This document shows positions 8,825 through 49,699 of a stretch of DNA of 64,000 bases, in pieces (positions within the stretch are counted from its first letter, which is position 1; each line of letters begins with the position of its first letter). The notes under the pieces are model-generated. The model did not search any database. It was not told the origin of the DNA and saw only the letters and a program-made list of their open reading frames with translations. Source of the stretch: an uncultured Actinomycetes bacterium (lineage in GTDB: Bacteria; Actinomycetota; Aquicultoria; Subteraquimicrobiales; CAMTWV01). Location of the stretch: NCBI GenBank assembly GCA_947085535.1, contig CAMTWV010000002.1, positions 94,199 to 158,198 of the forward strand, read 5' to 3'. Made by a program: the position numbers and the translations under genes.

Positions 8825-10090
8825 CTAACCGACTGTCTTTGCAAGTGTTTTTTCATTTACTGGCCCAATAGCTACCAGCAACATTTTTTCAGGTTTAAAT
8901 AAAAGTTTAGCTATCCTTTGCACATCTTCAAGAGTAACTTTGTCAATACGTTTAACTATTTCATCGAGACTTAAAATTTCTCCCTGTGTTAATTCAGACT
9001 TACCTAATCTTATCATTCTGTTGTGCGTGCTTTCCAAACTCAGCACCAACTGTCCTTTTAAATGTTCACGAGCTATATTTAGTTCTTTTTCAGTTACCCC
9101 GTTCTCAGCAATATTCATTAGTTCGTTTTGAGTAATCTTTAAAACTTCTTCGACTTTTGATTTTCTTGTTCCTGCGTAGACAGCAAATAATCCTGAATCT
9201 GAGTATAGCGAATGGTAAGAGTAGACGGTATAGACAAGCCCTCTTTTTTCTCTTATTTCTTGAAATAGTCTGGAGCTCATTCCCCCGCCCAAAATGACAT
9301 CAAGGATAGCCAGAGTAAATCTATCAGCATGTTTAGCTGGAACAGCAGTAGTTCCGTAGCATATGTGGACTTGCTCTGTCTCCCGTGAATTGACAAGCAA
9401 TCCTTTTTTAGGTTTGGATTCAAGTTCCTGTCTTTTGGTTGATGCTAAAGGTGAAGGAGTTTTAGTTTTCGGAAAATGTTTGTTGATTAAATTAACAATG
9501 CTTCTTGTTTCAAGATTACCAGCGGCGGCAACAAGGATGTTTTCAGGAACATAATTCTCACTAAAAAACTCAGAGATATTTTCGCGGTTAAAAGATTTAA
9601 CCGTTTCAATTCTTCCAAGAATGTTTTTGCCCAAGGGGTGATTTTGAAAAAGCGTTGACGCAAAAAGGTCATGAATTAGCTCATCTGGTGTGTCTTCATG
9701 AAGATTTATTTCTTCCAGAACAACATTTTTTTCGGACTCGATGTCTTTTTTGTTTAGAAGTGGATTCTGGAGCATGTCTGCTAATACATCAACCGCAATG
9801 GGAAGATGCTTATCGTGAAAACGAGCATAATAACAGACATACTCTTTTGAAGAAAAGGCATTAATATCTGCCCCTAAAGACTCGAAGATTTCGGAAATGT
9901 CGCGAGATGAGTATTTTTTGGTTCCCTTAAATAGCATATGCTCAATGAAGTGTGAAATTCCTTCATGTTTGTCATTTTCATCTCGCGTGCCCACTTTTAT
10001 CCAGAAACCAAGAGCTATTGATCTCATGTGAGGCATGGGTTCGCTTAATATCTTAATGCCTGAATCAGAATATGAAAAAGTGAAAGACAT
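8825..10090 (-). CDS. M16-family (pitrilysin-like) zinc peptidase
   Basis: 421 aa with the inverted zinc motif HFIEH (HxxEH). It occupies the mlpA/ymxG position downstream of pnp. Confidence 0.9.
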   Translation of the reverse strand: MSFTFSYSDSGIKILSEPMPHMRSIALGFWIKVGTRDENDKHEGISHFIEHMLFKGTKKYSSRDISEIFESLGADINAFSSKEYVCYYARFHDKHLPIAVDVLADMLQNPLLNKKDIESEKNVVLEEINLHEDTPDELIHDLFASTLFQNHPLGKNILGRIETVKSFNRENISEFFSENYVPENILVAAAGNLETRSIVNLINKHFPKTKTPSPLASTKRQELESKPKKGLLVNSRETEQVHICYGTTAVPAKHADRFTLAILDVILGGGMSSRLFQEIREKRGLVYTVYSYHSLYSDSGLFAVYAGTRKSKVEEVLKITQNELMNIAENGVTEKELNIAREHLKGQLVLSLESTHNRMIRLGKSELTQGEILSLDEIVKRIDKVTLEDVQRIAKLLFKPEKMLLVAIGPVNEKTLAKTVG

Positions 10091-12640: not shown

Positions 12641-12668
12641 AAAATAGACAAGAAAAAATAGACAAGAA
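12641..12668. promoter_or_regulatory. Perfect tandem 14-bp direct repeat (AAAATAGACAAGAA x2), candidate operator
   Basis: 12641-12654 and 12655-12668 are identical. The repeat lies 16 nt upstream of the -35 box of the cassette promoter. Confidence 0.45.
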
Positions 12669-12684: not shown

Positions 12685-12713
12685 TTTACAAAATTGAGTT
12701 TATAAAATATATT
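12685..12713 (+). promoter_or_regulatory. Putative sigma-70 promoter of the HTH-ImmA-membrane cassette
   Basis: TTTACA (12685-12690), a 17-nt spacer, TATATT (12708-12713). AGGAGG RBS lies 6 nt before the ATG at 12753. Confidence 0.45.
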
Positions 12714-12752: not shown

Positions 12753-13142
12753 ATGGCAAGTATTGACGAAAAGTTGAGATTTTTATTTACCACACATTTA
12801 AGCCCTGACGGAGATGAATACACCTACGAGGAAGTTGCTCAAGGAACCGGAGGTGTAATTTCACCAAGTTATGTCTGGAATCTCCGAAATGGGAAGAAGC
12901 TGAATCCAAGCCGGTCTAAGATGGAAATACTGGCAAAATTCTTCGATGTGTCACCTTCCTACTTCTTTGATGAGGAAGACGCTCTAAAGAAAAGCTTAAG
13001 CATTGATACAAGAATCGTGAGAGCAATTGAAGACCCAGTGGTAAGAGACATTGCTTTGCGGGCAATGGACTTAAGCGACAGAAACAAAGAGTTTATTTTA
13101 GCTATGGTTGATAAAGCGAAAGAGTTAGTTGAGGAAAAATAG
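12753..13142 (+). CDS. XRE-family HTH regulator with EspR-like architecture
   Basis: 129 aa. The pattern KLRFLFTT..PDG.EYTYEEVA....ISPSYVWNLRNGKKLNPSRSKMEILAKFFDVSPSYFFDEE plus a C-terminal helical block (VRDIALRAMDLSD..) parallels EspR as I remember it (RLNRLFDTV..PGRGPHTSAEV..MSAPYLSQLRSGNRTNPS..MAALANFF..AAYFTDDE). Confidence 0.8.
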   Translation: MASIDEKLRFLFTTHLSPDGDEYTYEEVAQGTGGVISPSYVWNLRNGKKLNPSRSKMEILAKFFDVSPSYFFDEEDALKKSLSIDTRIVRAIEDPVVRDIALRAMDLSDRNKEFILAMVDKAKELVEEK

Positions 13143-13660
13143 TGCTCAACCAGAGCAAGCTTAGAAAAAAGGTTAATAAATTGCTAAAAGAATTGAATTT
13201 TGAAGGAAGTTTTGATTCTTTTAGGTTTGTTGAGAAACTCGGGGAGCAATTAAACTTAAAGATAAAACTCCAATCTGTTCCCATGCCGCCCGGTTTTTTT
13301 GGCTTCTGGAGTTTAATCAATGACTGTCATGTCATTCTTTATCGGGCAAATACTTCTTGGTTTCATCAGCAACAAATTATCTTCCATGAATGCGGGCATA
13401 TTTGTTTAGGCCATCATTCAGGAAGCATTGAAAAGTTTTTAAAAAGAGAAATTCTCTACTCCGAGCCCGAGGAGCAAGAAGCAGAAACTTTTGCCACACT
13501 TCTTCTATGTAATGCTATAACTCAGGGATTGACTGAGCAAGGTATTTCTCTAAGCCAATATTATAACCAAAACAGTTCTTTTTACAACGAGTGTCCCCAG
13601 GATGTAATTTCAATGCAGGATTTTATGCTTCAATTAAAAGAAGTAATGGAAATGAGGTGA
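13142..13660 (+). CDS. ImmA/IrrE-family (COG2856) zinc metallopeptidase
   Basis: 172 aa. HExxH motif in FHECGHICLGHH and downstream EQEAETFA (the E.EA..FA motif of the family). The GTG start overlaps the upstream stop (TAGTG), implying translational coupling. Confidence 0.8.
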   Translation: MLNQSKLRKKVNKLLKELNFEGSFDSFRFVEKLGEQLNLKIKLQSVPMPPGFFGFWSLINDCHVILYRANTSWFHQQQIIFHECGHICLGHHSGSIEKFLKREILYSEPEEQEAETFATLLLCNAITQGLTEQGISLSQYYNQNSSFYNECPQDVISMQDFMLQLKEVMEMR

Positions 13661-13670
13661 GGTAACTCCC

Positions 13671-14960
13671 TTGCTTTATTACTTAGATTACCTTTTTCTT
13701 ATGCTCTTTTGGACTTGTACTTTGTATGCGCTTAAAGCTTATTATGTAAATCCACGTGATTCGAAGAATAAGCATGTTTTTTTGGTTTTTTTATTTGCTT
13801 CTATTGCTTTTACCTTTGCCGCACCCATTATTGCTCAAAAATTCAATAAGTTTTTGGGAATTAGCAGCATCAGTCGACCAATCGAGAATATCTCGAGCCT
13901 TATAGCTCTTTACTTTGGCTACCTTTTTTTTACGGATTTTGCTCCTAAAAAAAAGAAAAGAATTCCATGGCTTACTTTCTATCTTTTTTTGGTTACTGTA
14001 GCTCTAATTTCAATTTTTTCCCTGTTTTTGTCCAAACCTCAGCTTGAACCAATTTTTTTGGGTGAGGACACAAGAAATTTATCTGTTTTCATTTACAGTT
14101 TAGTTCTTCAGTCCCTTTTTCTCCCCCTTTTTGCTATTTATGCTTTAAATTTTTATAGATATGCTCGCCTGGTCAAAGAGCAAGCAACAAGAGTCAGACT
14201 TTATTCTTTATCGATAGGTTGTTTAATGGGCGCTTCGGGTCGCATTCTTGAACTCGTTTACTGGTTTGATATGCGGTATTTTGCTTATCTAAAGTTTTTC
14301 GGATTCTCTGCGGTTATTAGAATAATCAATTTATTTATGGTTTTATTTCTTTACGCTGGTTTTATAATGCCTGCTTTTTTAAGGAAAATTGTAGAGTCGT
14401 TTGGCGAACTGTTAGGATTGCGTCGAACTCGATATAATTTGATTTCCTTGCTTGCTTTAATTAACGACGCCCGTTCTTTTCTTCATTCTGATAATGAAAT
14501 GATTAATTATGTGCGGCGACTGTGCGAAAAATTTTTCTTAAGCTTAGAGGAGACAGCGCAGGCGGTAGAAAGTGCTCGGATAATTTCTGCTCTGGCTGGA
14601 AAAACAGATCAAAATTCAACTATGGAGTCTGCTCAGGTTTTTCATAGCGCTGCCAAGTATGCAGCGGCTGCCTTTGCTGAAGAAATTAAGTTTTATGACC
14701 AGGTTTATAAGAATATTTTGTATGCCAAGGAAAGGTATGACGGAAAGGATGCTATTTCTGACTTAAGTGGGGATAAATTACCAATGGGCTCACGCATTAT
14801 AAAAGTGGTTGATTGCTATTTCAATTCAAATCTTTTTCCCTTCGAAGCAGTCAAAGTTTTAAAGAAAGGTGCGAATAAAGAATTTGATCCCGAAGTAATA
14901 AAAGCTTTTATTGAAATACTCGAGGAAGAAAAAAACCTCAATCTCTTAAGATCTTCTTAG
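13671..14960 (+). CDS. Polytopic (~7 TM) membrane protein with a C-terminal degenerate HD-GYP-like domain
   Basis: 429 aa. TTG start 8 nt after GAGGTGAGG. About 7 hydrophobic helices in residues 1-236. The C-terminus AKERYDGKDAIS..LPMGSRIIKVVD..FDPEVIKAFIEIL aligns to the HD-GYP consensus HHERxDGxGYP..P.gaRI..vaD..FDP.lv.aF, but HD, HH and GYP are all substituted. Confidence 0.6.
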   Translation: MLYYLDYLFLMLFWTCTLYALKAYYVNPRDSKNKHVFLVFLFASIAFTFAAPIIAQKFNKFLGISSISRPIENISSLIALYFGYLFFTDFAPKKKKRIPWLTFYLFLVTVALISIFSLFLSKPQLEPIFLGEDTRNLSVFIYSLVLQSLFLPLFAIYALNFYRYARLVKEQATRVRLYSLSIGCLMGASGRILELVYWFDMRYFAYLKFFGFSAVIRIINLFMVLFLYAGFIMPAFLRKIVESFGELLGLRRTRYNLISLLALINDARSFLHSDNEMINYVRRLCEKFFLSLEETAQAVESARIISALAGKTDQNSTMESAQVFHSAAKYAAAAFAEEIKFYDQVYKNILYAKERYDGKDAISDLSGDKLPMGSRIIKVVDCYFNSNLFPFEAVKVLKKGANKEFDPEVIKAFIEILEEEKNLNLLRSS

Positions 14961-16780: not shown

Positions 16781-17758
16781 TTACTCTGTTTGGGTAAGCT
16801 TTTTGGTCAAATCAATTAAAATCTCAATAGTCTTTTCTTCTTTGAAGGGCGAAGAGAATCCAGCGGCGTTAGGATGTCCCCCTCCACCAAATTTTTCAGC
16901 AATTTTAATTACGTTAAATGGACCATGCGACCTCAAGCTCACCTTTATAGTTTTGTCGGGTAGCTCTTTTAAAATAGCTGCCACTTTTGTACCATTAATA
17001 CCTCTAATAATGTCGATAAAGTTTTCTGTTTCTTCCATTTTTGCGCCTGTTTGCGCGAGGTCTTTTTGGGTGATAACTGAGTAAGCAAGTCCAATTTCAG
17101 GAAGAAAGTTTAGCTTTTGAAGAGTATGCATAAGCAACTTAACACTTTCATGGGAATAATTTTCATAGACATTTTGAAAAACAAAATTAGGGGAAACACC
17201 GTATCCTAAAAGCTCTTCTGCCATTTTAAGAGTCTTTTTTGAAGTGTTTGAATACTGGAATTTGCCTGTGTCAGTAACAAGTCCTGTATAAAGACAAAGA
17301 GCAATTGAGTGGTCAATTTCCTCATTTAAATATTTAATTAAATCAAATATCACTTCTGTTGTGGCGCTAGCTTTTCCGTCAACTATGTTTATGACGCCGA
17401 ACATTTCGTTGTCTGCGTGATGATCGATGTTGACCAAGGTAATTGCACTTTTTGCTTCTTCGATGAGATTACCCAGACGCTCAATGTTAGCACAGTCTAA
17501 AGCAATGAATACTTCAGGTTTTTTAGGGCATTCGAAGTGTGGTTTTATAAGGTTTGCTCCCGGAAGAAAGGTATATTGAGGTGGGATGCGTAAAATTGGT
17601 TCACCCCAGCTTAAACAAACTTCTTTGCCCAGATTGGAGAGAAAAAGCCCCAAACCCAACAGCGAACTGATGCCATCGCCATCAGGCTGAACATGGGTGG
17701 CAACAACAAAACTGTTTGTCTTTTGAATTAAATTTGCAAATGGTTGAAAATCATTCAT
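16781..17758 (-). CDS. nrnA: DHH/DHHA1 phosphoesterase (NrnA-like nanoRNase / pAp phosphatase)
   Basis: DGDG, DHH (NIDHHADN) and GGGHPNAAG motifs. I prefer the ATG at 17756-17758, which overlaps the rbfA stop (ATGAATGA). The ORF track's longer start at 17827 would overlap rbfA by 77 nt. Confidence 0.85.
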   Translation of the reverse strand: MNDFQPFANLIQKTNSFVVATHVQPDGDGISSLLGLGLFLSNLGKEVCLSWGEPILRIPPQYTFLPGANLIKPHFECPKKPEVFIALDCANIERLGNLIEEAKSAITLVNIDHHADNEMFGVINIVDGKASATTEVIFDLIKYLNEEIDHSIALCLYTGLVTDTGKFQYSNTSKKTLKMAEELLGYGVSPNFVFQNVYENYSHESVKLLMHTLQKLNFLPEIGLAYSVITQKDLAQTGAKMEETENFIDIIRGINGTKVAAILKELPDKTIKVSLRSHGPFNVIKIAEKFGGGGHPNAAGFSSPFKEEKTIEILIDLTKKLTQTE

Positions 17759-18107
17759 CAGGTGTTCCCTCGTGAATTTTTTTAAGTATTTCGGTAATTC
17801 TAATGCCGTACTCAATTGATTCATCAATTTTAAAAGTTAGTTCAGGGAGAAATTTAATTTGCACTCTTTTTCCCAATTCATTTCGAATATGACCTTTAGC
17901 GTGCTCTATTGCTTTAAATGTTCGCGCAATTTCCTTTTCTTTTCCCATAATACTTAAATAAACGTGGGCGTTTTTCAAGTCAGGAGAAACCTCAACGCTT
18001 GTAATGGTGACAAATCCAATACGAGGGTCTTTTAGCTCTTTCTGGAAAATAGACGATATAGTTTCTCTTAGAACTTTATTAACACGAAGAGTTCTTGGAC
18101 GTCGCAT
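17751..18107 (-). CDS. rbfA: Ribosome-binding factor A
   Basis: 118 aa. RVNKVLRETISSI...DPRIGFVTITSVEVSPDLKNAHVY signature. Confidence 0.93.
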   Translation of the reverse strand: MRRPRTLRVNKVLRETISSIFQKELKDPRIGFVTITSVEVSPDLKNAHVYLSIMGKEKEIARTFKAIEHAKGHIRNELGKRVQIKFLPELTFKIDESIEYGIRITEILKKIHEGTPDE

Positions 18108-42044: not shown

Positions 42045-42971
42045 TTACTCTGACAAGAGGGCTTCCGTGAATTCATCAGGATTAAATTCACGCAAATCTT
42101 CCAAGCCCTCACCTATGCCAATTAGTTTAATGGGTATTTTTAGTTCGTCCTGAATAGCTATAACTATGCCGCCTCTGGCTGTACCGTCAAGCTTAGTCAG
42201 AATTATTCCATCAATACCCAGAGTTTCTTGAAAAACTTTTGCCTGGGTAATTCCGTTGTGTCCTGTCGTAGCATCAACCACAAGAAGTGTTTTTAAGTTC
42301 GCCTTGGGTGCCTCGCATTCAATTATGCGTTTAACCTTTTTTAGTTCTTCCATTAAATTTAAATAAGTATGCAGTCTTCCGGCCGTATCGATTAATAAAA
42401 CATTTGCTTTTCGGGCAAGTGCAGCGTGTACAGCATCAAAAGCTACAGCCGAAGGATTAGCGCCGCGTTTATGGCAAACACACTCAATGTCTAATTTTTT
42501 TGCCCAGACTTGAAGCTGTTCAATAGCAGCAGCCCTAAAAGTATCCGATGCGCAAAGTATTGGTTTTAAGTTTTTTTGCTTCACCTGATGGGCCATTTTT
42601 GCAATGGTAGTGGTTTTACCTGTGCCATTAACTCCCACAATTAAGAAGACATTTAGCTGATTGTCCTTTAAAAGTACATCCTCTTCCTTTCTTAAAATGG
42701 TTATTAATTCCCCCTTTAGATACTCCAAAATTTCCGGAGGATTTTTTAATTCGCCTCTTTTAACTTTCTCTTTTAAGTTGGAGACAAGCTTTATAGTAGT
42801 AGTCACACCTACATCAGCCCCAAGGAGTATTTCTTCGACTTTTTCCCAAACATGTTCTTCGAAACGAGTAAGTCGAGGAAAAATAGAAGAAAGCTCATGC
42901 GTAAGATTCTCGCGACTTTTTCTCAATCTTCTCTTAAGTTTTTCAAACAATTTTTCATCGGTAATTTTCAT
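42045..42971 (-). CDS. ftsY: SRP receptor FtsY
   Basis: 308 aa. GVNGTGKTTT, DTAGR and TKLDGT motifs. Confidence 0.95.
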   Translation of the reverse strand: MKITDEKLFEKLKRRLRKSRENLTHELSSIFPRLTRFEEHVWEKVEEILLGADVGVTTTIKLVSNLKEKVKRGELKNPPEILEYLKGELITILRKEEDVLLKDNQLNVFLIVGVNGTGKTTTIAKMAHQVKQKNLKPILCASDTFRAAAIEQLQVWAKKLDIECVCHKRGANPSAVAFDAVHAALARKANVLLIDTAGRLHTYLNLMEELKKVKRIIECEAPKANLKTLLVVDATTGHNGITQAKVFQETLGIDGIILTKLDGTARGGIVIAIQDELKIPIKLIGIGEGLEDLREFNPDEFTEALLSE

Positions 42972-45900
42972 ACTGCTTCACGCTCAGCGTTAAGTTTTTG
43001 TGAAATCAGTTTGGAAACACCATCAGCCTGCATGGTTGTGCCATAAATTGTGTCAGCCATTTCCATGGTTCGTTGCTGATGGGTGATGATTAGAAACTGA
43101 GTTTTGTCCTTTAACCTTAATAAAAGATTAATGAAGCGCTGAAGATTAGCTTCATCCAGAGACGCTTCAACTTCATCAAGGATGTAAAATGGGCTAGGCC
43201 TTGTAAAGTATAGGGCAAACAAGAAAGCTAAAGCAGCGAGTGCGGTTTCGCCCCCTGACAAAAGAGAAAGTTTCTGAAGTTTTTTCCCTTGCGGCTGAAT
43301 CTGTATCTCAATTCCTGACTCAAGAAGATTATCTTCTTTTTCTAAAACAATCTCAGCTTTTCCACCGGGAAATAAATAAGAAAAAACGGATTGGAAATTC
43401 TTATTAACTTCAACAAGAGTTTGGGCAAATTTTTCTTTTATTTTTTCATCTATTGCTCTGGTGACTTTTTCTAAAGCTTTTTTGCTATGCGATAAGTCAT
43501 TTATTTGTTCGTTCAAGAATTCATAACGCTCATCAAGCTCTTTAAATTCCTCAAGCGCCATGGGATTAACAGGACCCAGACTGCTTATTTTGCGCTTAAT
43601 TTCGCCAATTTTAGTCTGGCACTCAGAGTAAGAAATTTTTAGAGGATAATTTTCAAGTGCTTTCTCGAGCGGCGTATCGTATTCATCGACAATTTTTTCA
43701 ACAGCTGAGGTGATTTGTCCTTCCAACTGCACCCGACTTAATTCTTTTAAGCGTAAATCTTCTTGAAGTGTCTCTTTTTTTGCCTCGCATCCCTCTTTTT
43801 CTTCTTTAAGTTTTTTGAAAGCCCGCCTGATTTCTTCAAAGAATGTTTCATCCCCTGAAGCAATATCAGTCAGTTTCGCCGCCCACCAGTTTCCTTTTTC
43901 GTATAGGGCGGTAAAGAGCTCATAAGTGGGTTGTATGCGACCGACTAAAACTTCAAGCGCTTGAGAAATTTTGTGTTCGGATTCAGTTAAACTTTCAATT
44001 TCTCTTAAATCCTGATTTAATTTTTCTTTTTGCTGGTTTAGATGATTTTTTTGATTGACCAGCGATTTTAAATTAACTTCATTTTCCATTATTTTATGGC
44101 TGAGAGTAAGTTCTTCTTTATGGTTTGCATTTAATTCAACTTTGAAAACCTGGAGAGCTTCCTTTGCTTCATCTATTTTTGCTACAATATTTTTACTTTC
44201 TTTTGAGAAATTTTCTTTTGTGGTTTTGTCAATCTTTATTTCTTCACCAAGTTTATTTGACTCATTTTCAGCTTTTACTAAGTTATCTTTAAGCTTAATT
44301 AAGTCAGCCTCAAAATTGTGTATAGTCACTTTAAGAATTTCAATTTGAGAAGACTCATTGTTTAGCTTTTGTTGATATGAAGCTAAATTTTCTTTTGTTT
44401 GAGCGAGCCTTTCTTTATCTTTTTTAATTTCTGCCTCTAAAGTTGAAATCCCATGAGTTAATTTATTTTTTTCATCTTCAAGTGCTGTAAGCTCTCTTTT
44501 TCTATTTAAGATTTCCGAGGAATTGTTGCCAGCGATATTCCCGTAGCTTATTTTAAATGGGCAAAACACTTTGCCATTAGTTGTAACAAAAGTTAAATCA
44601 GAGCTTGTTTTATCGCTTAAACAACTGTCTTCGTTGATCAAATAAATATCTCTGGTTAGATACTCAATCGCCGATTTAAATTTTTCGTTTATTTCAATAA
44701 CGTCGCTTAATTTTTGTCCATTTGATTTGTGAGTATCAGGCATAGGAAGATTATTTATTGGAAGAAAAGAGATACCGCCCTGAATCGAGTTTCTTCGAAT
44801 AAGCCCAAGAGCATTTAAAGCCGTTTCTTTTGTGTCGCAAAGCACTGTGAATAAGTCAGGACCTAAAGCTGCCTCCAAAGCTTGTTCAAATTTAGGGGAA
44901 ATTTTAATTAAATCAATAAGGCAACCTGCTATGCCTTGAGGTTTGTTTTCTTTTTTTAATAACCAAGCTACTGCCTCAGGATAACCGGTTAAGTTGTTGT
45001 TCATGCCTTGAAGAGCATTGCTTTTTGATTTGCATTCAGCTGATTTTATTTTTAAGTCAGATAACTTCACCAGATGATTGTCTAATTTAAGTTGAACCTT
45101 ATTTAGTTCCTCTTCTAATTGTTTTATTTCTTTCCGGGAGTTTTTAATGTTACCCTCAAACCCTTCTCTTTCTTTGCTTTTAGCTTCAATTAACTTATTT
45201 AGCTCACTTATTTTTGTGAGATTAGAATTTCTTTCCGAGTCGATGAGTTTTAATTTTTCTTCGTTAAGGGTAATTTTTCTGTCAATATCAGATAACTTGT
45301 GCTGAATTTCAGAAAGATAAGCAGTGTTTTTATTAAGCGTCTCTTCCAAATTTTCAATCGTTTCTTCCAGATTAGAGCTTTTCTTAGTTTGATTTTCTTG
45401 AGAATTTTTAAGTTCATTTAAAGTATTTTCAATATGGCTTATTTCTTCCTCTGTTTTTTTCTTTCTATCATTTGTTTCTGTTATCTCTTTGTTCTTTTGG
45501 GTCTTTTGTTTTTCAAGCCGGTAAATTTCCTGCCGAATCTCGCTCATTTTTTCAATTAAGTGTTTACCTTTTTCCTCTAAAAGCAACATACTGCTATGAA
45601 GTCTTTCCTGAATAGCAGCAAGATGTCTTCTTTGTTCACTTAAATTTCCGGTAAAAAGTCTTTTCTCCTCTAAAGAGATCTGAAACTCTTCAATTTGGGT
45701 TTCTTTTTGTTTAAATTCATTTTTAAAAGTTTCAAAGCTTTCTTTTAACTGCTTTTCCTCTAAATTAAGCTTTTCCCATCTCTTTTGCATCTCTTTTAAT
45801 TCGAAAATTGTCTGACTTAGCTCTAACGTTTTTAACTCGTCGGTCAGCTTCTGGTATTCTTGAGCTTTTTCCGCCTGAGATTTTATGGGTCTAAGTTGAC

Positions 45901-46501
45901 GATGTACTTCTTGAGAAATATCTCGAATTCTTGATAGAGTTTGCTCCATTGACTCCAATTTTTTAATTGCCTTTTCTTTCCTTTTCTTATACTTCAATAC
46001 ATGAGCAACTTCCTCAATTAGAAGCCTTTTTTCTTCTGGCTTACTGGTTAAAATTTCTTCTAATTTCCCCTGACTGATAACAGAGTGGCACTCCCTTCCC
46101 ATTGCGGAGTCAGATAATAATTCCTGGATATCAAACAGTCGGCAAGGGGAATTATTTATGAAGTACTCTGAATCACCTGAGCGAAACAGACGGCGGCTAA
46201 TTGTTACCTCAGAAAATTCCAGGGGTATACTTTTATCTGAATTATCCATACAAAGAGTAATCTCGGCTAAGCCTAATGCTGGACGAGCGCTACTACCAGC
46301 AAAAATTACATCTTCCATAGCAGTGCCTCTAAGCGAGCGTGGACTTTGCTCTCCCAGCACCCAGAGGACTGCATCAGAAATATTACTTTTGCCGCTGCCG
46401 TTTGGACCTGCAATTACAGTTATTCCTGGTTTAAACTTTAAAATTGTTTTATCAGCAAAGGATTTAAATCCTTTGAGCGTTAAAGATTTAAGATACATCA
46501 A
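42968..46501 (-). CDS. smc: Chromosome segregation protein SMC
   Basis: 1177 aa. Walker A GPNGSGKSN, long coiled coils, hinge, signature LSGGE, Walker B ILDEVEASLD. Confidence 0.96.
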   Translation of the reverse strand: MMYLKSLTLKGFKSFADKTILKFKPGITVIAGPNGSGKSNISDAVLWVLGEQSPRSLRGTAMEDVIFAGSSARPALGLAEITLCMDNSDKSIPLEFSEVTISRRLFRSGDSEYFINNSPCRLFDIQELLSDSAMGRECHSVISQGKLEEILTSKPEEKRLLIEEVAHVLKYKKRKEKAIKKLESMEQTLSRIRDISQEVHRQLRPIKSQAEKAQEYQKLTDELKTLELSQTIFELKEMQKRWEKLNLEEKQLKESFETFKNEFKQKETQIEEFQISLEEKRLFTGNLSEQRRHLAAIQERLHSSMLLLEEKGKHLIEKMSEIRQEIYRLEKQKTQKNKEITETNDRKKKTEEEISHIENTLNELKNSQENQTKKSSNLEETIENLEETLNKNTAYLSEIQHKLSDIDRKITLNEEKLKLIDSERNSNLTKISELNKLIEAKSKEREGFEGNIKNSRKEIKQLEEELNKVQLKLDNHLVKLSDLKIKSAECKSKSNALQGMNNNLTGYPEAVAWLLKKENKPQGIAGCLIDLIKISPKFEQALEAALGPDLFTVLCDTKETALNALGLIRRNSIQGGISFLPINNLPMPDTHKSNGQKLSDVIEINEKFKSAIEYLTRDIYLINEDSCLSDKTSSDLTFVTTNGKVFCPFKISYGNIAGNNSSEILNRKRELTALEDEKNKLTHGISTLEAEIKKDKERLAQTKENLASYQQKLNNESSQIEILKVTIHNFEADLIKLKDNLVKAENESNKLGEEIKIDKTTKENFSKESKNIVAKIDEAKEALQVFKVELNANHKEELTLSHKIMENEVNLKSLVNQKNHLNQQKEKLNQDLREIESLTESEHKISQALEVLVGRIQPTYELFTALYEKGNWWAAKLTDIASGDETFFEEIRRAFKKLKEEKEGCEAKKETLQEDLRLKELSRVQLEGQITSAVEKIVDEYDTPLEKALENYPLKISYSECQTKIGEIKRKISSLGPVNPMALEEFKELDERYEFLNEQINDLSHSKKALEKVTRAIDEKIKEKFAQTLVEVNKNFQSVFSYLFPGGKAEIVLEKEDNLLESGIEIQIQPQGKKLQKLSLLSGGETALAALAFLFALYFTRPSPFYILDEVEASLDEANLQRFINLLLRLKDKTQFLIITHQQRTMEMADTIYGTTMQADGVSKLISQKLNAEREAV

Positions 46502-48468: not shown

Positions 48469-49445
48469 TTTCTACCCATCCTTGAAGCCGCTTCATTAAA
48501 CTCGTTAATTAAATTCGCCATTATTTCCTTAACAGAAAGAACTTCTTTAATCTCAGACACTCTTTCGCCAATGGTAAAGAGACCTTTTATTACGTCTCCT
48601 TGCTGGGCTTTTTCGAGAGCCTCGATTATGCAGTAGTTTTTCTTGCAATCCTGCAAACATTGGCGGCATCTGACAAGGGTATCTTTGCCAGGAATAGGAA
48701 CTTTCCCTTCCCTTAAGTTTTTAACAAATGTGCTTACGACTGCCCTAAAAGGCATTCCGACAGGACTTTCAATTATCGTAACATTTTCTTTTTCTGCTTC
48801 TAAACAAATCTTTTTCCATTCATCGGCGCCGCTTGCTTCTTTACTTAAAGAAAATCTTGTCCCCATCTGTACACCCTTAGCACCCAAACTTAGTGCTTTG
48901 GCTATGTCGAATCCGCCAATTATTCCGCCTGCAGCAATTAACGGTAACTTCACGCTATTTATAATCTCAGGCAATATGGAAAAGAGTGTTTTGTCTGTGC
49001 CAAGATGTCCGCCTGCCTCAAAACCTTCAATTATAATAGCGGGTGGATCAAATTTTTCTGCCAATTTAGCTGCTTTCAATGACGAAACAACAGGTAAAAA
49101 TGGTATGTTTGCTTCGCGACAACGTTTAAAGGCTTCGCGCGAAAACCCGGCGCCTGAAACCACCAAATCGACTTTTTCCCTGATTGAAGTCTCGAGAAGG
49201 TCGCTAAAGTTTTTTAGAGCCACCATGATATTCACGCCAATTATTCTGTCAGTTAACAAACGAGCCTCTCTGATATGTTTAGCAAGCTCATTGCTTTTTA
49301 ACCCTGAACCGGCTATTAACCCAATGCCTCCTTCATTAGCTACAGCAGCAGCAAGTGGTGCTAACGAAATTCTAACCGCCATACCTCCTTGTATAACTGG
49401 AAGTGGCGCTTCTAAATTTCCAATTTTTAAAGTAGGAAGTTTCAC
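48465..49445 (-). CDS. fabK: FabK-type enoyl-ACP reductase II / nitronate-monooxygenase-fold flavoprotein with a 4-Cys motif
   Basis: 326 aa. VIQGGMA, GGIGLI and AAGGI motifs of the NMO/FabK fold, placed inside the fab cluster. C260-x2-C263-x3-C267-x4-C272 motif near the C-terminus. Confidence 0.78.
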   Translation of the reverse strand: MKLPTLKIGNLEAPLPVIQGGMAVRISLAPLAAAVANEGGIGLIAGSGLKSNELAKHIREARLLTDRIIGVNIMVALKNFSDLLETSIREKVDLVVSGAGFSREAFKRCREANIPFLPVVSSLKAAKLAEKFDPPAIIIEGFEAGGHLGTDKTLFSILPEIINSVKLPLIAAGGIIGGFDIAKALSLGAKGVQMGTRFSLSKEASGADEWKKICLEAEKENVTIIESPVGMPFRAVVSTFVKNLREGKVPIPGKDTLVRCRQCLQDCKKNYCIIEALEKAQQGDVIKGLFTIGERVSEIKEVLSVKEIMANLINEFNEAASRMGRN

Positions 49446-49462
49446 TTTTTTCTCCTGTTTAA

Positions 49463-49699
49463 CTATTGTTTTTTGCTTTCGATGTAATTAACAGCATCGC
49501 CAACGGTGACAATCTTTTCAGCATCTTCGTCAGAAATTTCGATGCCAAATGATTCCTCGAGAGCCATTACAAGCTCAACAATATCGAGCGAATCAGCACC
49601 AAGGTCGTCAACAAAGGCTGTTTTTTCAGTGACTTCACTTACCTCCACACTTAGTTGGTCAGCAATTATATCCTTTACTTTTTCAAAAATAGCCGACAT
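49463..49699 (-). CDS. acpP: Acyl carrier protein
   Basis: 78 aa. [11 protein letters not shown] phosphopantetheine attachment site. Confidence 0.97.

Follow-up and report, generated by a model that had tools for sequence, protein, structure and literature searches.

We analysed a 64,000-nucleotide window of contig CAMTWV010000002.1 (positions 94,199–158,198; assembly GCA_947085535.1) from an uncultured Actinomycetes bacterium and find that its plus-strand gene at 13671–14960 (gene 3, TTG start) encodes a 429-residue membrane protein in which a seven-helix transmembrane (TM) domain is joined to an HD-GYP domain that, judged by its residues, has lost both its catalytic and its known ligand site. 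The gene is the last of a mobile three-gene module, hereafter the triad, in which it follows genes for a putative repressor and a putative zinc peptidase. The fold, the losses, the selection that maintains the domain, its fusion to seven TM helices, the triad and its occurrence in many contexts and on plasmids are, taken together, very probably correctly described. Dead cyclic di-GMP (c-di-GMP) enzymes are usually presumed to be receptors; here catalysis and the known ligand site are both gone and yet the fold is still selected, which points to a purely protein-based role.

An HD-GYP fold behind seven TM helices

The C-terminal 190 residues of the protein are a genuine HD-GYP-fold domain and belong to the HD-GYP superfamily. 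Pfam HD_5 matches the gene 3 product over residues 311–409 (profile positions 65–170 of 170) with 31.1 bits (gathering cut-off 27.2), and the fragment encoded by 14403–14957 on its own scores 34.1 bits. A weak NCBIfam match is to a response-regulator c-di-GMP phosphodiesterase model. Among PDB sequences, phmmer finds the HD-GYP domain of PA4781 (4r8z, E 2e-6) and also V-cGAP3 (5z7c), and pairs YA.KERYDGKDAIS of the gene 3 product with YShHERWDGRGFP of PA4781. Because of these Pfam and PDB matches, the resemblance is real and far above chance. It extends over the entire domain: hhalign aligns the profile of the protein's family with a canonical HD-GYP profile over 190 columns (probability 99.95%, E 6.7e-38), and a MAFFT alignment of the family C termini with 14 canonical domains likewise spans about 190 residues. 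A sequence-only reading of this DNA had proposed an HD-GYP origin for 14403–14957 from a hand alignment, and the profile and database comparisons bear this out.

The predicted structure is consistent with this assignment. From an alignment of 14 sequences, AlphaFold2 (AF2) gives a full-length model with a predicted local distance difference test (pLDDT) score of 80.7, in which seven TM helices (pLDDT about 85–90 in the TM domain) precede a helical C-terminal domain; the fold of that domain is predicted with a pLDDT of 87. Residues 1–239 (13671–14387) form the seven-helix TM domain, of the MAB_1171c type according to NCBIfam, the family profile and AF2, and residues 240–429 (14388–14957) comprise a stalk helix followed by the degenerate HD-GYP domain. 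In the model, helix 235–270 continues TM7 into the helical C-terminal domain, much like the stalks of the HD-GYP proteins DvhD and PmGH, and the loop charges place the N terminus outside and the C terminus inside by the positive-inside rule. Anchoring of the dead domain in the membrane, as the sequence-only reading had it, thus agrees with the seven helices and the stalk of the model. A Foldseek search of the PDB with the full-length model ranks PA4781, V-cGAP3, DvhD and PmGH first for the C-terminal part, PmGH being one of the structures that had been singled out for comparison. The membrane part retrieves only generic seven-TM matches (G-protein-coupled receptors and bacteriorhodopsin, E 0.25–1), which are no evidence of a relationship. 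A kinship with MASE9, the membrane domain carried by the top-scoring canonical HD-GYP proteins of like size, was considered and rejected (hhalign probability 0.2%).

Catalytic and ligand-binding residues are lost

On the evidence of its aligned residues, the HD-GYP domain is catalytically dead. We mapped its positions in a MAFFT alignment to which the sequences of PmGH, DvhD and PA4781 had been added; residue roles follow Galperin and Chou (bioRxiv 10.1101/2021.11.05.467447) and the paper describing the DvhD structure (PMC13090378). Seven of the eight metal ligands of PmGH are lost: E185 corresponds to L271, H189 to S273, the HD dyad H221-D222 to I305-S306 (14583–14588, where MAFFT and hhalign agree), H250 to A328, and H276-H277 to A352-K353. 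These last two residues belong to the HHE position, A352-K353-E354 (14724–14732), at which only the glutamate, PmGH E278, is kept. The sole remaining metal-ligand position is D381 (14811–14813; PmGH D305), and its column varies across the family between D, G, N, S and R.

The other motifs have fared no better. The lysine of the GK motif (PmGH K225) is A309, the c-di-GMP contact of the KPG motif (PmGH K235) is S316, and GYP (PmGH G284-Y285-P286; DvhD Y621) is replaced by D360-A361-I362 (14748–14756). At S386-N387 (14826–14831), a deletion shared by the entire family has removed the c-di-GMP-binding loop RxY[K/R], which holds R314 and K317 in PmGH and R650, Y652 and R653 in DvhD. None of the features of an active HD-GYP phosphodiesterase is therefore intact, be it the set of metal ligands, the GYP motif, KPG (K235/G237) or the RxY[K/R] contacts. 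What persists is scaffold: P371, G373, R375, I376 and the structural motif F405-D406-P407 (14883–14891), which is also conserved in canonical HD-GYP domains.

Much of this had been anticipated. The MAFFT mapping confirms the proposed replacement of HH by A352-K353 and of GYP by D360-A361-I362, and the scaffold residues said to be kept (E354, P371, R375, I376, D381 and FDP) are indeed present. The HD dyad had been placed at A307-L308 (14589–14594), a register that needs correcting to I305-S306; the conclusion that the dyad is lost is unchanged, since residues 302–311 contain no His or Asp at all. With seven ligands and GYP gone, catalysis as a metal-dependent phosphodiesterase of the known type would be precluded, as had been argued. 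We also considered the invariant D266 as a counterpart of PmGH E185 and ruled it out, as the alignment with PmGH pairs E185 with L271 and leaves D266 in a non-ligand column.

A small family under purifying selection

A word-indexed search with the full protein found only four close relatives, all from metagenome-assembled genomes of Actinomycetota, including Candidatus Subteraquimicrobiales; with the C-terminal domain alone it retrieved only one protein (P0004). In scans of genomes and metagenomes, just two loci proved to be true members of the family. A profile searched exhaustively against 1.84 billion representatives returned 7423 matches, nearly all of them canonical HD-GYP proteins matched through the C-terminal domain, and the full-length family comprises about 14 sequences, namely the window protein, P0001–P0011, P0018 and P0049.

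Several strong matches of that search (P0014–P0021, P0026 and P0034) are proteins of 610–670 residues with two HD-GYP-type stretches. The family profile fits the second, apparently degenerate copy best, an arrangement comparable to the tandem domains of V-cGAP3.

HDxGK and HHE are missing from all 14 family members, so the degeneracy is a trait of the family and not a sequencing artefact. Single members keep relics of the motifs, the His of HD in P0005, the Asp in P0009 and P0011, and GYP in P0008 only, which speaks for an active ancestor whose motifs were lost step by step. The dead domain is nonetheless kept under purifying selection. The ratio of nonsynonymous to synonymous substitution rates (dN/dS) of the C-terminal domain is 0.29 between the window and the related locus L003 and 0.22 between loci L001 and L002, and the blocks LPxGSRIIKVV and FDPEVVxAF are still present where overall identity has fallen to about 20%. 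D266, E300, F341 and Y342 are invariants specific to the family that canonical HD-GYP domains do not share.

Relationship to MAB_1171c and DUF6545

The TM domain is homologous, by profile comparison, to that of the MAB_1171c/DUF6545 proteins. NCBIfam MAB_1171c_fam (NF042915) matches the gene 3 product at E 2e-17 and 63.3 bits over model positions 2–239 of 362, that is, over the TM part only, and below the family cut-off of 100 bits. Two proteins, P0073 and P0113, were found by the exhaustive search through their TM half only and carry Pfam DUF6545 at the C terminus; the family profile scores 73–80 bits over their TM domains. They are collinear with the family beyond the membrane, with a second matching segment that covers roughly the initial 70 residues of the cytoplasmic domain. 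Their DUF6545 regions, a sample of two sequences only, align with the family domain over 76 columns corresponding to helices 1–3 (hhalign probability 95.7%, E 9e-9), and directly with canonical HD-GYPs at a probability of only 56%. Pfam DUF6545 has no match in the window protein. From these two DUF6545 sequences, the window family would appear to bridge DUF6545 and HD-GYP, and the comparison opens a first way to approach the structure and evolution of the MAB_1171c/DUF6545 family.

The relationship extends to gene content. Bona fide MAB_1171c/DUF6545 proteins are encoded in the same triad at loci L075, L076, L080 and L081, among them the DUF6545 proteins P0073 and P0113 (L075 and L076) and genes labelled 'MAB_1171c family putative transporter' in RefSeq on a Streptomyces plasmid (L080) and on the Amycolatopsis plasmid pAmyja1. 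The peptidase homologue of the Streptomyces plasmid shares 27% identity with the window peptidase (E 1e-17) and has the motif HEIGH. Full-text literature searches for DUF6545, PF20182 and NF042915 found no paper.

The annotation of the middle gene differs between these plasmids. At L080 (NZ_CP108441.1, Streptomyces plasmid), the M78-like gene at 2940–3464 (WP_329317180.1) has the RefSeq label 'toxin' and no NCBIfam match, and its homologue on pAmyja1 is labelled 'hypothetical protein'.

A conserved and mobile three-gene module

Gene 1 of the triad (12753–13142, plus strand) encodes a 129-residue helix-turn-helix (HTH) protein of the XRE family with a C-terminal domain of the dimerisation type, a probable repressor resembling EspR and CapH. 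It matches Pfam HTH_3 with 26.7 bits (cut-off 23) and the PADLOC capH profile at 3.8e-8 over positions 11–100 of 103, and it aligns over its full length with Mycobacterium tuberculosis EspR (PDB 3qf3, 3r1f and 4ndw; residues 7–123 against 9–126, E 5e-9). EspR is an ESX-1 regulator and nucleoid-associated protein; a literature search on the neighbours of espR (Rv3848/Rv3850) turned up nothing useful.

Gene 2 (13142–13660, plus strand), whose start overlaps the gene 1 stop by 1 nt, encodes a 172-residue ImmA/IrrE-type (M78) zinc peptidase consisting of the catalytic domain only, with HECGH at 13385–13399 and the third-ligand motif EAE at 13478–13486. The Pfam Peptidase_M78 match lies below the cut-off (1e-3, 19.2 bits against 22), and Pfam M78 is recorded for the peptidase homologues at L078 and L074. 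The PADLOC capP profile is matched at 2e-6 in its catalytic half only (positions 3–112 of 242), and PHROG 87, a metallo-protease, at 5e-9. The best PDB match is the catalytic motif of CapP, and it is not significant. Residues H82, E83, H86, E111 and E115 are invariant in 11 homologues. The peptidases CapP and IrrE carry a GAF sensor domain (bioRxiv 10.1101/2022.04.27.489752), for which the gene 2 product is too short. The HTH and M78 components of a switch of the ImmR/ImmA, CapH/CapP or DdrO/IrrE type are thus present, and by analogy the repressor is predicted to be cleaved. In size the peptidase resembles ImmA.

Both genes accompany the membrane protein throughout. The order HTH gene (127–220 residues), peptidase gene (161–204 residues), membrane protein gene is fixed at every family locus with enough flanking DNA, so that the linkage to a protease and a repressor, noted earlier from the window alone, proves to be a strictly conserved operon. 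We found the triad in 11 genomic contexts, with membrane proteins down to 20% identity. Seven hold the HD-GYP-like form: the window with L003, L001/L002, L069 (P0018, 20% identity), L071–73 (P0008), L074 (P0010), L077 (P0007) and L078/79 (P0006). The remaining four are the MAB_1171c/DUF6545 loci named above. Compared with the window queries, the repressors of the other triads match at E ≤ 1e-29 and the peptidases at E ≤ 1e-14, and HExxH...EAE is invariant.

The surroundings, by contrast, differ at every locus: the flanks include rpsO/ribF, PIN toxin–antitoxin pairs, a histidine kinase with cysE-cysS, AAA_15/21 with a pPIWI-type nuclease, FabF and an ABC transporter, which makes the triad a self-contained unit. 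A common regulated fourth gene was looked for and rejected, as the genes directly downstream are housekeeping genes of mixed kinds (methylthioadenosine/S-adenosylhomocysteine nucleosidase, geranylgeranyl reductase family, FabF, CysE, PAP2 and P450). The module is mobile and autonomous. In its DUF6545 form the membrane gene of the triad lies on five actinomycete plasmids; searches of viral contigs, phage records and plasmids gave no match to the HD-GYP-like form. In the window, the triad is the only plus-strand unit in a 64-kb block of minus-strand housekeeping genes: all open reading frames (ORFs) of at least 200 residues lie on the minus strand except the membrane gene and an overlapping, probably spurious ORF at 48643–49491. 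Situated between rpsO and ribF, the triad splits, in opposite orientation, the widely conserved nusA-infB-rbfA-nrnA-truB-ribF / rpsO-pnp block, and for this reason looks like an insertion. Its local GC content is 0.36, against about 0.38–0.41 in the flanks.

Upstream of gene 1, rpsO and the HTH gene diverge from a 253-bp region that contains a perfect tandem direct repeat, two copies of AAAATAGACAAGAA (12641–12668, plus strand), 17 nt upstream of a promoter-like site (12685–12713, plus strand; TTTACA at 12685 and TATATT at 12713, spacing 17). There is no operator motif common to the triad loci, and because the repeat recurs only in the near-identical L003, we treat it as a candidate operator/promoter of the triad.

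Receptor, enzyme or remnant

Degenerate HD-GYP domains can be receptors, and a membrane-anchored cyclic-dinucleotide receptor was the role that the sequence-only reading had favoured. The only structurally proven dead-HD-GYP receptor is DvhD (PMC13090378), which has SQ in place of HD and MN in place of HH and binds c-di-GMP without metal through L577, K582, Y621, M646, R650, Y652, R653 and E668 (PMC13090378). The window protein shares with DvhD the loss of the HD and HH ligands. The DvhD sequence retains KPG, GYP and the R650/Y652/R653 loop, whereas the corresponding contacts in the gene 3 product read S320, gap, A361, S386, gap, gap, gap and G400, so that none of the eight is kept. These columns are not conserved within the family either, and of the PmGH contacts (K235, Y285, R314, K317 and the metals) not one has escaped substitution or deletion. 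No nucleotide cyclase is encoded in or next to the triad at any locus examined, and the 64-kb window has no GGDEF, EAL or further HD-GYP signature elsewhere. Since the known ligand site disappeared along with the catalytic one, a wholly new pocket would be required for the domain to act as a receptor, and in the DUF6545 relatives, where no more than its first three helices remain, the pocket cannot form. A metal-independent receptor for a cyclic dinucleotide or related nucleotide, working as DvhD does, is on these grounds improbable.

Two other fates of the domain are much less probable still. It might be an enzyme with an alternative metal site made of carboxylates (D266, E300, E337, E338, E354, D357 and D381), several of which are invariant or nearly so in the family, with E354 and D357 common to active HD-GYPs. 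However, D381 and E354 vary in the family, all His ligands and the substrate-binding loops are lost, and we know of no HD-superfamily enzyme without the HD dyad, which leaves such an activity very hard to credit. The view that a former phosphodiesterase is decaying here into a functionless remnant would account for the progressive, lineage-specific loss of motifs and for the truncation to DUF6545 in relatives; the dN/dS values of 0.2–0.3, the LPxGSRIIKVV and FDPEVV motifs kept to 20% identity and a fold predicted with confidence (pLDDT 87) speak so clearly against it that we regard it as the least credible of the possibilities.

Possible mechanism and direction of signalling

By analogy with ImmR/ImmA, CapH/CapP and DdrO/IrrE (bioRxiv 10.1101/2022.04.27.489752; Makarova et al. 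2009, PMC2701414), the three genes may constitute an autonomous proteolytic-derepression cassette. The repressor would shut off the operon, and a stress cue would make the peptidase cut the repressor, leading to derepression. The membrane protein would be the output of the module, acting at the membrane, because it is the only non-regulatory component of an autonomous unit. Its dead HD-GYP domain would be a dimerising protein-interaction or conformational-relay module, neither enzyme nor nucleotide receptor, that couples the seven-TM bundle to the peptidase/repressor pair or gates the seven-TM domain. We give this mechanism as a whole a probability of roughly 0.45. Several points weigh against it. 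The output label was reached by elimination, as no other gene is conserved, and there is no positive sign of an effector; nothing indicates that the dead domain physically touches the peptidase or the repressor; and seven TM helices with a cytoplasmic domain of a signalling type are more typical of sensors than of effectors. The sole study of a relative reports that a MAB_1171c transposon mutant forms less biofilm and has altered minimum inhibitory concentrations, with no mechanism (PMC8707978). Finally, with about 14 members among 1.8 billion representatives, the family is so small that its conservation statistics are thin.

Signalling might also run the other way. The seven-TM domain would then sense a cue in the membrane or envelope, and the dead domain would activate or release the peptidase to cleave the repressor, in the manner of a split BlaR1/BlaI system controlling the operon and possibly unlinked genes. 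A peptidase that is catalytic-only and has no GAF domain would need an external activator, as for ImmA. Moreover, the three proteins have been co-inherited long and very strictly, with translational coupling; a stalk helix connects the TM bundle to the domain in the model; polytopic membrane domains fused to HD-GYP (MASE9–12) are generally held to be sensors; and the dead c-di-GMP-type domains of LapD and DvhD control proteases (PMC13090378). Yet the module is mobile, sits in unrelated contexts and has no conserved regulated cargo, so a sensor would regulate only itself unless the repressor acts in trans, and neither an operator common to the loci nor a sign of interaction speaks for this arrangement, which we consider rather unlikely. 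Strict co-evolution of the three proteins is compatible with both directions, and in each case it suggests direct contacts among them. A bolder reading, somewhat more doubtful again, would make DUF6545 of the MAB_1171c proteins a relic of an HD-GYP phosphodiesterase, and the combination of a seven-TM protein, an EspR-family repressor and a sensor-less ImmA-like peptidase an unrecognised membrane-coupled proteolytic switch, in which the dead domain hands a membrane signal to the peptidase. If true, it would cover the MAB_1171c proteins of mycobacteria and Streptomyces. The triad is a conserved mobile unit that may serve as a stress switch, an addiction module or in defence.

Comparison with known systems

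Degenerate HD-GYP domains are already known from HnoD, ECA3548 and DvhD, and Pfam already tags the present family with HD_5. What is new is the completeness of the degeneration, with catalytic and ligand sites both lost, the joining of a MAB_1171c-type seven-TM domain to a dead HD-GYP domain, and the membership of this protein in a conserved triad with EspR-like and ImmA-like partners that reaches into the DUF6545 family of Actinomycetota.

DvhD of Desulfovibrio vulgaris (PDB 9rbz/9rc0) is likewise a transmembrane protein with a dead HD-GYP domain, a c-di-GMP receptor that controls the protease DvhG. It binds its ligand through KPG, GYP and loop contacts that the window protein has lost altogether, and it combines dCache and PAS domains with a periplasmic protease, whereas the window protein has a seven-TM bundle, and its operon partners are a cytoplasmic M78 peptidase and a repressor. 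Among active HD-GYP proteins, PmGH (4mcw), PA4781 (4r8z) and V-cGAP3 (5z7c) are homologous over the full length of the domain, and the MASE9-HD-GYP proteins TM1467 and HdgA have the same layout, a polytopic membrane domain of ~230 residues followed by an HD-GYP domain of ~180. In contrast to these, the window protein keeps one of the eight metal ligands and no GYP, KPG or RxY[K/R], and its TM domain is unrelated to MASE9. HnoD, ECA3548 and Xanthomonas campestris RpfG also have degenerate HD or HHE motifs and regulate without hydrolysis, through protein–protein interaction; they are soluble response-regulator or PilZ fusions, and the degeneration in the window protein, with its substrate loop deleted, is far more complete. 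The MAB_1171c family shares the homologous seven-TM domain, the operon of HTH, M78-like and membrane genes and the first 76 cytoplasmic columns, but the window protein falls below the family cut-off and has a complete HD-GYP fold in place of the shorter DUF6545.

As regards the partners, ImmR/ImmA (ICEBs1), CapH/CapP (regulators of CBASS, an antiphage signalling system based on cyclic oligonucleotides) and DdrO/IrrE (Deinococcus) likewise combine an XRE repressor that has a C-terminal dimerisation domain with a COG2856/M78 HExxH peptidase, the two being encoded by neighbouring, coupled genes. The window peptidase differs from CapP and IrrE in having no GAF domain, the window repressor is EspR-like, and the third gene is fixed where theirs is variable. 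BlaR1/BlaI and MecR1/MecI, which likewise bring together genes for a membrane protein, a zinc protease and a cleavable repressor, serve as an analogy only: BlaR1 unites sensor and protease in a single polypeptide, which belongs to an unrelated family (M56), and no homology is claimed.

Genomic neighbourhood

Several further features of the loci were recorded. In the window, the 3′ ends of the membrane gene (plus strand) and of ribF (minus strand) overlap convergently by 23 bp (14938–14960), as they do in L003. Two genes away from the triad stands a DHH/DHHA1 (NrnA-like) gene (16781–17827). Some bacteria use NrnA-type enzymes to degrade pGpG and pApA; the proximity is probably coincidental, since the gene belongs to the conserved rbfA-truB operon. 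A strongly AT-skewed, low-GC segment at 44001–46000 (GC 0.319) falls inside an ordinary SMC gene (42968–46501; 1177 residues, SMC_N and hinge) and is no island.

Elsewhere, the P0008 triad of L071 (GCA_002011575.1) lies between an AAA_15/AAA_21 ATPase gene (1–1991) and a pP_pnuc_1 gene (6149–7306), the latter of the pPIWI-associated nuclease type, and this neighbourhood resembles a defence island. At L001, PIN toxin–antitoxin pairs, MazE/PIN and ribbon-helix-helix (RHH)/PIN_3 (3804–4515 and 8487–9136), stand on either side of the P0002 triad, and a phage-type integrase gene follows ~5.4 kb downstream.

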